NCBI GenBank assembly: GCA_965232545.1
Contig: OZ246979.1
Span: forward strand, 5,734,077-5,798,076
DNA length: 64,000 nucleotides
Source of the DNA: Candidatus Poribacteria bacterium
GTDB taxonomy: Bacteria; Poribacteria; WGA-4E; WGA-3G
Direction of reading: 5' to 3'
Shown: positions 13,393 to 13,904 of the stretch, piece after piece
Layout of the letters: every line of letters begins with the position of its first letter
Position numbering within the stretch: position 1 is the stretch's first letter
The notes under the pieces: model-generated
The model's database searches: none
The model's input: the letters and a program-made list of their open reading frames with translations, nothing else
Told to the model about the DNA's origin: nothing
Program-made: the position numbers and the translations under genes

Positions 13393-13432
13393 GACTTTGA
13401 CCTCCAATCGCCTCATCGTCGTTCAGTTTGCA

Positions 13433-13755
13433 TTTATGATGAATCCTAAAAATACATAGACATCTTAAAGAAACAACAGTCCTCCTCCGCTGGCGAGGTT
13501 TCTAACCTCGCCTCTTTAGAGTGTCTAAGTAATTCTAAAATCTACCATGTATATTTGCATTTACATAATTGTCTGTGCCACTGCCGCCTGTTATTCTGCA
13601 GCTTGGCTTTTCACATCGTATATCTTTCGCCTCAGTCGAAAAATCAATCTCTATTCCACCTAACATACTAACACAAGTTCGACATTTTCGCAAGTCGCAT
13701 GACAAGGGTAGCACGGGCATTTAATGTCTATTTATTTTTAGGATTCACCATAAAA
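13433..13755. mobile_element. MITE-like insertion with about 36-bp terminal inverted repeats in the thiC leader / glcB upstream region
   Basis: Left end TTTATGATGAATCCTAAAAATACATAGACATCTTAAA (13433-13470) matches the reverse complement of the right end at 13718-13755 at about 33 of 36 positions. The element carries a REP-like hairpin at 13487-13549. Confidence 0.55.
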
Positions 13756-13904
13756 AGCCCTGATTTGTCAAAAAAATGATTGACAAACTACCAATCTATT
13801 GCTATGATTAAATCACAATTGCGGCAAAATTTGTTGTCAGTGCAGTGAAGCATCGATTAACGAGGATCCAACACCTTACAGCATCTTGGAATGGAGAAAA
13901 GAGT

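Follow-up and report, generated by a model that had tools for sequence, protein, structure and literature searches.

Probable remnants of two MITE copies and a missing TPP riboswitch between thiC and glcB in Poribacteria

In the stretch of Candidatus Poribacteria DNA analysed here, which is 64,000 nucleotides long and is called the window below, thiC and glcB diverge from an intergenic region (13393-13904) that contains a pair of inverted arms. The TPP (THI-box) riboswitch is near-universal before thiC and is the regulator expected there. The locus raises the question of what the arms are and whether they have anything to do with the riboswitch, which the first-pass annotation had reported missing. 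That annotation took the arms for the two ends of one ~320-bp MITE-like element whose insertion displaced or destroyed the riboswitch, or else supposed that the lineage regulates thiC differently. Very probably, the region instead carries two independent remnants of one Poribacteria MITE family, and the loss of the TPP riboswitch is a separate, older event. The features of the region are as follows.

11461-13392, minus strand: thiC (phosphomethylpyrimidine synthase, 643 aa; PF01964, E 1e-186; 95% identity to P0001)
13393-13434, minus strand: proximal thiC leader with Shine-Dalgarno sequence GGAGGT at 13405-13400, 95% identical to L001; the thiC ATG is at 13392
13427-13436, no strand assigned: left copy of the 10-bp direct repeat TTTGCATTTA (spacing 127), whose last TA is the terminal TA of the MITE
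13435-13553, plus strand: copy 1, a complete MITE (115-119 bp) in the thiC 5' leader, read as the reverse complement on the thiC mRNA
13435-13462, plus strand: 5' terminal inverted repeat (TIR) of copy 1, by motif match
13492-13512, plus strand: central hairpin GGCGAGGTTTCTAACCTCGCC of copy 1, recurring exactly elsewhere in the window
13525-13549, plus strand: 3' TIR of copy 1, by motif match, followed by 4-5 extra nt
13554-13563, no strand assigned: right copy of the 10-bp direct repeat TTTGCATTTA, flanking the MITE
13564-13660, minus strand: native thiC leader upstream of the MITE, with no TPP aptamer and no conserved structure
13665-13693, minus strand: putative thiC promoter, from conservation and consensus, with -35 TTGCGA (13693-13688), a 17-nt spacer and extended -10 TGT-TAGTAT (13670-13665)
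13720-13752, minus strand: solo 33-nt 5' terminus of copy 2 (TATGGTGAATCCTAAAAATAAATAGACATTAAA), identical at 33 of 33 positions to positions 1-33 of the L079 element
13780-13808, plus strand: glcB promoter-like site (TTGACA, 17 nt, TG-TATGAT; 11 of 12 matching), kept in L001 and L098
13905-16088, plus strand: glcB (malate synthase G, 727 aa)

The inverted arms and the DNA between them

The arms, at 13433-13463 and 13724-13754, are 31 nt long, complementary at 29 of 31 positions (94%) and 260 nt apart, with a centre-to-centre distance of 291 bp. Searched as a degenerate 31-mer, the sequence has exactly two occurrences in the window, and 100 dinucleotide-preserving shuffles gave none. The repeat had been described as 36 bp long with about 33 matching positions; its non-random character stands, and its length does not, the ungapped match being 31 nt and the figure of 36 requiring a 1-nt gap.

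Of the relatives with a long contig, L001 is the closest, its ThiC being 95% identical to that of the window and its glcB and thiC syntenic; the glcB DNA of L098 is 95% identical to the window's. One alignment block joins the glcB start and promoter of the window (13920-13751) to L001 2611-2780. Two further blocks, window 13738-13554 with L001 3776-3966 and window 13438-13380 with L001 3955-4013, abut in L001. Between the two copies of TTTGCATTTA, the window holds an extra 117-127 bp that are missing from L001 and L098, where TTTGCATTTA is present as a single copy. This extra DNA holds copy 1, which is placed 42 nt ahead of the thiC start codon and shares 95% identity over 109 nt with the 115-bp copy of L071, another Poribacteria genome. 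Its 5' and 3' ends match at 24 of 36 positions. The left arm is made up of its 5' TIR plus TTTA from the native flank, and the partner of that 5' TIR is the 3' TIR 90 nt off. The DNA between the arms, earlier taken for the inside of one element, aligns (window 13738-13554) with the thiC promoter and leader of the MITE-free L001, and since it is orthologous to that region, the arms are not the ends of one element. On these alignments, they are very probably the ends of two separate copies of one MITE family, and the 160 bp between them is native host DNA, namely the thiC promoter and leader. The facing of the two surviving 5' termini is a coincidence.

The 10-bp repeat around copy 1 exceeds its null distribution, whose maximum is 9 bp at 0.1%. 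Among 71 copies examined, such a flanking duplication was seen at the window copy alone, and neither it nor the 4-5 extra nucleotides at the 3' end of copy 1 are predicted by a TA-duplicating mechanism.

The right arm belongs to copy 2, the rest of which is absent from the window, and the stump leads directly into the native thiC promoter region. Past the stump, ATTAAATGCCCGTGCTACCCTT of the window aligns with ATTGAATGGCCCTGACACCCTT of L001 and L098. At the identical junction, between GGCT[C/T]TTT and TA, L098 has a 128-bp element in its entirety, oriented opposite to the window stump, and L001 is empty. Both relatives have a 262-aa ORF between this glcB-side junction and the thiC promoter, which is absent from the window. 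The ORF is basic (L001 2778-3566; L098 ~1100-2000) and gave no match in Pfam, NCBIfam or PADLOC. In the simplest history, an element would have stood at the glcB-side TA in the window lineage, and a deletion of ~1-1.1 kb would then have run from about position 33 of copy 2 to 27 bp upstream of the thiC -35, with the loss of the 262-aa ORF as well. The deletion may have occurred across a short microhomology, ACATTAAA versus A[C/G]AATTGAA. The states of L098 and of the window at this TA could stem from either one ancestral insertion followed by the deletion or two insertions at one hot spot.

Two side observations concern the flanks of this region. Compared with L001 5941-7183, window 11431-11461 is without the 3keto-disac_hyd (246 aa) and 66-aa genes, which in L001 stand between thiC and a GFO/IDH/MocA oxidoreductase gene; their absence is a second indel flanking thiC in the window. 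The palindrome TTTGTCAA-N8-TTGACAAA (13764-13787) lies over the glcB -35 and is perfect in the window only, one half not being kept in L001 and L098. Weak CRISPR-DR matches at 13750-13786 (E 5-8) were traced to this palindrome and set aside.

A family of small elements in Poribacteria

To count copies beyond the locus, the core 21-mer GAATCCTAAAAATANATAGAC was scanned in one genome per GTDB species (185,579 species, 596 Gb), where ~1 match is expected by chance (20 specified bases in 596 Gb). It was found in 85 stretches from 28 assemblies, all of them Poribacteria MAGs except for one with the label 'uncultured bacterium'. A single 6.66-Mb chromosome, OX639973.1, holds at least 35 of the stretches. 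The arms are thus neither unique nor a product of chance, and the MITE-like origin first proposed for the repeat is borne out, in that it is a MITE terminal repeat with multiple copies in the lineage.

Members of the family are ~100-130 bp long overall (90-133 bp in 72 oriented copies, with a mode of 126) and run from 5' TATAGTGAATCCTAAAAATAAATAGACAC to 3' CCAATTAATTCTAAACTTTACTATA, with TA at both tips. The consensus TIR is imperfect and 29 nt long: 20 of the first 29 positions match, 23 of 36 match overall, and the outer six are all identical. The interior is a variable mosaic of short REP-like hairpin modules falling into at least 10 classes. Only 2 of 71 copies overlap ORFs of at least 100 aa, versus 85% of random positions, which marks the elements as intergenic and non-coding; no strong bias to convergent, divergent or tandem gene pairs was found among the copies. 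Every copy reads TA...TA, and the flanks have T at -1 in 47 of 70 copies and A at +1 in 50 of 70. The terminal TA is either a target duplication or part of the TIR, and the sequence fits both. Beyond it, no flank duplication rose above the shuffled-pair null in 70 copies; a long target-site duplication was rejected as a family trait, the flank repeats of these copies matching the null with the window copy as the sole outlier.

Bacterial MITEs are recognized by a size below 200 bp, TIRs, a terminal TA and long stem-loops in transcripts (PMC2229807). The window copy has no ORF inside it and, like the family at large, falls within the small size class of such elements (below ~200-600 bp). Orthologous sites are found both filled and empty: at the thiC leader site the window has an element where L001 and L098 have none, and at the glcB-side TA there is a full element in L098, a remaining stump in the window and an unoccupied site in L001. 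Because of these filled and empty sites, and because near-identical copies are spread over one genome, the elements are mobile. We would class them as Poribacteria-specific MITEs, apparently a new family of a known kind; no account of MITEs or of thiamine riboswitches in Poribacteria was found in the searchable literature.

The window holds one complete MITE copy and three fragments. Apart from the stump before thiC, the fragments include the following.

6331-6396, plus strand: 5'-truncated copy with the hairpin module and the 3' TIR, 91% identical over 67 nt to the L038 element
27214-27262, plus strand: 5'-truncated copy (3' TIR region) of the subfamily of 13435-13553, just past the stop codon of the ORF 25723-27159

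The REP-like hairpin noticed at the first pass is confirmed as GGCGAGGTTTCTAACCTCGCC, which occurs exactly three times in the window: at 13492-13512 within the MITE, at 6339-6359 in the half-copy and at 42957-42977 alone. These three sites suggest that the MITE interior is built of independently dispersed palindromes. Interior hairpin modules stand alone at about 9-12 intergenic places in the window, and GTAGCRYAAACTNNNAGTTTGYGC has nine distinct sites there and none in shuffles. Beside the 3' half MITE at 6331-6396, the interval 6230-6740 is dense in GTAG-headed REP-like hairpins of the GTAGCRYAAACTNNNAGTTTGYGC type, part of which form a ~130-160-bp periodic array. In L034 (~2340-2740, minus-strand orientation), a 30-nt REP-like module, CATCTTTGTAGCATAAACTTCCAGTTTGTG, is repeated ~12 times in tandem within a single MITE copy.

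Among known systems, the nearest analogue is the Correia element of Neisseria (CREE/NEMIS). Correia elements are non-coding and 69-155 bp long, with ~26-nt TIRs and TA at both tips; they occur in hundreds of mostly intergenic copies, have no identified cognate transposase and are often transcribed together with adjacent genes, forming long hairpins (PMC2229807). The outermost heptamer, TATAGTG, is identical in the two families (Correia 5'-tatagtggattaac, PMC5039591; Poribacteria TATAGTGAATCC). Past these first 7 nt, however, the TIRs show no significant similarity (p 0.24-0.9), the phylum differs, and Correia has one conserved core with an IHF site where the Poribacteria interior is the mosaic described above. 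Outward promoters and RNase III processing are documented for Correia. Membership in the Correia/CREE family was therefore rejected, the terminal heptamer being all that is common and the remainder non-significant, and the likeness is one of analogue, not homologue. The pneumococcal RUP is similar in being ~107 bp long and intergenic, with TIRs, TA insertion and ~100 copies per genome (PMC2229807), and it provides the precedent for mobilisation in trans through a DDE transposase that targets TA. Its TIRs, in contrast, match a known IS, IS630-Spn1, and for the Poribacteria family no autonomous partner was found and there is no sequence similarity to RUP. Enterobacterial BIME/REP sequences share the mosaics of short GTAG-headed palindromes, whose modules are also met singly behind stop codons and in tandem arrays. 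BIMEs lack long, conserved, TA-tipped TIRs and are linked to RAYT, whereas the conserved unit of the Poribacteria family is the pair of ends.

The thiC leader and the TPP riboswitch

No Rfam family reached its gathering score anywhere in the window. For the TPP riboswitch (RF00059), a covariance-model score of at least 54.3 bits was the criterion. On 13300-14000, both strands, the TPP model gave no match at E<=10, in agreement with the first-pass reading, and the only matches there were the two to CRISPR-DR. There was likewise none at E<=1 in L001, L002, L003 and L091, and in L092 and L098 no match reached the gathering threshold. With the same model, 20 related loci give 57-74 bits ahead of thiC; they served as positive controls and make the negative result in the window informative. 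These TPP-bearing loci are L004/L005, L093, L095/L096, L097 and L100, together with 15 more distant metagenomic loci; scores in the sister Poribacteria L004, L093, L095, L097 and L100 are 62-74 bits. ThiC identity to the window is 87-88% in L004/L005 and 83-86% in L093, L095/L096 and L097, and in the latter three thiC heads a thiC-thiO-thiS operon.

Six loci, the window, L001, L098, L002, L003 and L091, are without the TPP riboswitch. A quick NJ tree of 14 sequences, without support values, unites the full-length ThiC sequences of the window, L001, L002 and L091 in one clade and places the TPP-bearing L004 group as its sister. In the window and its whole ThiC clade, RF00059 is absent with no residual sequence similarity. 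The loss of the riboswitch in this clade is plain, and a single loss in the common ancestor would be the parsimonious account. Since L001, L002 and L091 lack the riboswitch without having a leader MITE, the loss is older than, and independent of, the MITE of the window. The proposal that an insertion displaced or destroyed the riboswitch does not survive this comparison, L001, L002/L003 and L091 having neither a leader MITE nor the riboswitch, and the MITE was not its destroyer. The alternative that the lineage regulates thiC differently is supported as far as sequence can show. Comparison of the thiC upstream region with relatives, as suggested at the first pass, thus yields both an empty leader site in L001 and L098 and a clade-wide absence of the riboswitch.

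What precedes thiC in these loci, L003 among them, is a conserved putative promoter and a poorly conserved leader without the riboswitch. The block ACTTGCGAAAAT-N-TGTGTTAnnAT is invariant in five TPP-less loci (the window, L001, L098, L002 and L091), and we infer that it is a sigma-70-like promoter of thiC with an extended -10. Downstream of it, the leader is ~140 nt long when the MITE is excluded and only ~45 nt in L091; ATTGGAGG in the proximal leader is invariant across the relatives. On present alignments, the thiC leader looks unconstrained. An independent, decayed MITE fragment lies in the thiC leader of L098 (2294-2373), ~40 nt upstream of the insertion point in the window, and because the two insertions are at different places, the riboswitch-less leader has been struck at least twice. 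A CU-rich leader stretch at 13636-13645 could pair with the Shine-Dalgarno region at 13397-13405 in the window, L001 and L002 (leader alignment columns 18-26 with 139-147); the pairing is weak in energy and has no covariation, and the stretch is missing in L091.

Alternative explanations, proposed history and meaning

A single ~320-bp MITE, bounded by two 31-36-bp arms between thiC and glcB and responsible for a displaced or destroyed TPP riboswitch, would suit arms that are inverted and 94% complementary and the lack of a TPP match, but we regard it as refuted by the empty-site alignments and as extremely improbable. The thiC promoter and leader of L001 and L098, with the invariant promoter block, are the orthologous counterpart of 13564-13719; the left arm with its own 3' TIR makes up the family-typical 115-bp element; none of 92 family members has a 320-bp arm-to-arm layout with two 5'-type ends; and MITE-free relatives are likewise without the riboswitch. 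Even less credence, next to none, is due to the arms as paired operators through which a DNA-binding regulator, substituting for the riboswitch, would loop the thiC promoter. Their placement, bracketing the putative thiC promoter and leader with centres 291 bp apart, would allow it, yet the same sequence is the terminus of at least 85 dispersed elements in all sorts of intergenic regions, L001, L002 and L091 share the promoter without either arm, and the elements of L098 sit at other positions and in other orientations. REPs are single palindromes of 20-40 nt. That the elements are REP/BIME-like units moved by a RAYT-type (Y1/HUH) transposase and not a DDE enzyme, with ends that are mosaic modules and not true TIRs, is unlikely, although of greater weight than the two readings just given. 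The interiors are indeed mosaics of GTAG-headed palindromes that also stand alone in the window and in tandem arrays (L034), no flank duplication extends past the TA, no transposase was found nearby, and solo termini and half-elements are common. The ends, however, are 29 nt long, mutually inverted, TA-tipped and much better conserved than the interior, and entire units are present or absent at orthologous sites; long TIRs and whole-unit polymorphism are MITE hallmarks (PMC2229807).

The leader itself invites a further reading, in which the covariance models miss a decayed or variant TPP aptamer at 13564-13660, or else a novel riboswitch of the thiamine pathway there. By eye, the strings CUGAGG and CUGCAGAAUAACAGGCG recall TPP cores, the leader is ~140 nt long without the MITE, and the blocks GNAGUAGAGA and GUGUGAAAAGYC are common to the window, L001 and L002. 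We consider this very unlikely. In local alignment, three TPP-less leaders against five real TPP leaders gave z -0.9 to 1.0, versus 27-147 among the TPP leaders themselves, and a decayed aptamer was rejected on this result, which is no better than shuffles, and on the absence of any match at E<=10. A conserved novel RNA was also rejected: the RNAalifold consensus of three leaders has -4.7 kcal/mol and essentially no covariation, and L091, with its ~45-nt leader, is without the blocks and most of the leader. Furthermore, the window and L098 tolerate MITEs at two different leader positions.

We therefore return to two remnants of one MITE family beside an older riboswitch loss. Copy 1 landed in the 5' untranslated leader of thiC, with the promoter-proximal leader on one side and the ribosome-binding site on the other, and was presumably mobilised in trans by a TA-targeting DDE transposase, by analogy with Correia and RUP; such trans-mobilisation has been proposed for RUP with IS630-Spn1 and assumed for Correia (PMC2229807). 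In a non-systematic look, no transposase with matching ends was found, the ORFs adjoining long or atypical copies being ordinary genes. An autonomous partner among the neighbours was rejected on that ground, with the 262-aa ORF having no family match.

Transcription of thiC would start at the conserved promoter and run through the MITE. Its central hairpin has no following U-run on the thiC-sense strand and only a weak terminator-like site was flagged, therefore read-through of the MITE by thiC transcription is plausible. No convincing outward promoter was found in the MITE. As single-strand DNA, copy 1 folds at -16 kcal/mol (z -5.2) with its TIRs paired, and for the 261-nt thiC leader RNA that includes the MITE the fold energy is -69.7 kcal/mol (z -4.1), again with the TIRs paired. 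In the thiC 5' untranslated region, pairing of the TIRs would form a long, stable hairpin that may alter the processing or stability of the thiC mRNA; by analogy with Correia elements, RNase III processing or altered stability could follow. The promoter, the Shine-Dalgarno sequence and the ORF are intact, and neither the Shine-Dalgarno sequence nor the start codon, which follow the MITE by 30-42 nt, would be drawn into the pairing.

The mechanism suggested for this locus is an ordinary one, and what it offers is a new MITE family and a clade-level riboswitch loss. The family appears to be confined to the uncultivated phylum Poribacteria and abundant in it, with copies spread over the genomes of sponge symbionts. 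For annotation, its copies and stumps would account for many of the odd intergenic inverted repeats and hairpins in Poribacteria MAGs. The MITE also marks recent rearrangement, standing at the edge of the probable ~1-kb deletion and having struck one leader twice in close relatives. The clade-wide loss of the TPP riboswitch before thiC is a small, clean case of riboswitch loss in a symbiont lineage, for which vitamin supply to the host is discussed. That this clade of sponge-symbiotic Poribacteria has given up feedback control of thiC, with a constitutive promoter, a junk leader that accepts MITEs and de-repressed HMP-P/thiamine synthesis, is unlikely, and de-repression of thiC with a benefit to the host is speculation; if true, de-repressed thiamine synthesis might be a sign that the symbionts supply their host with vitamin B1.
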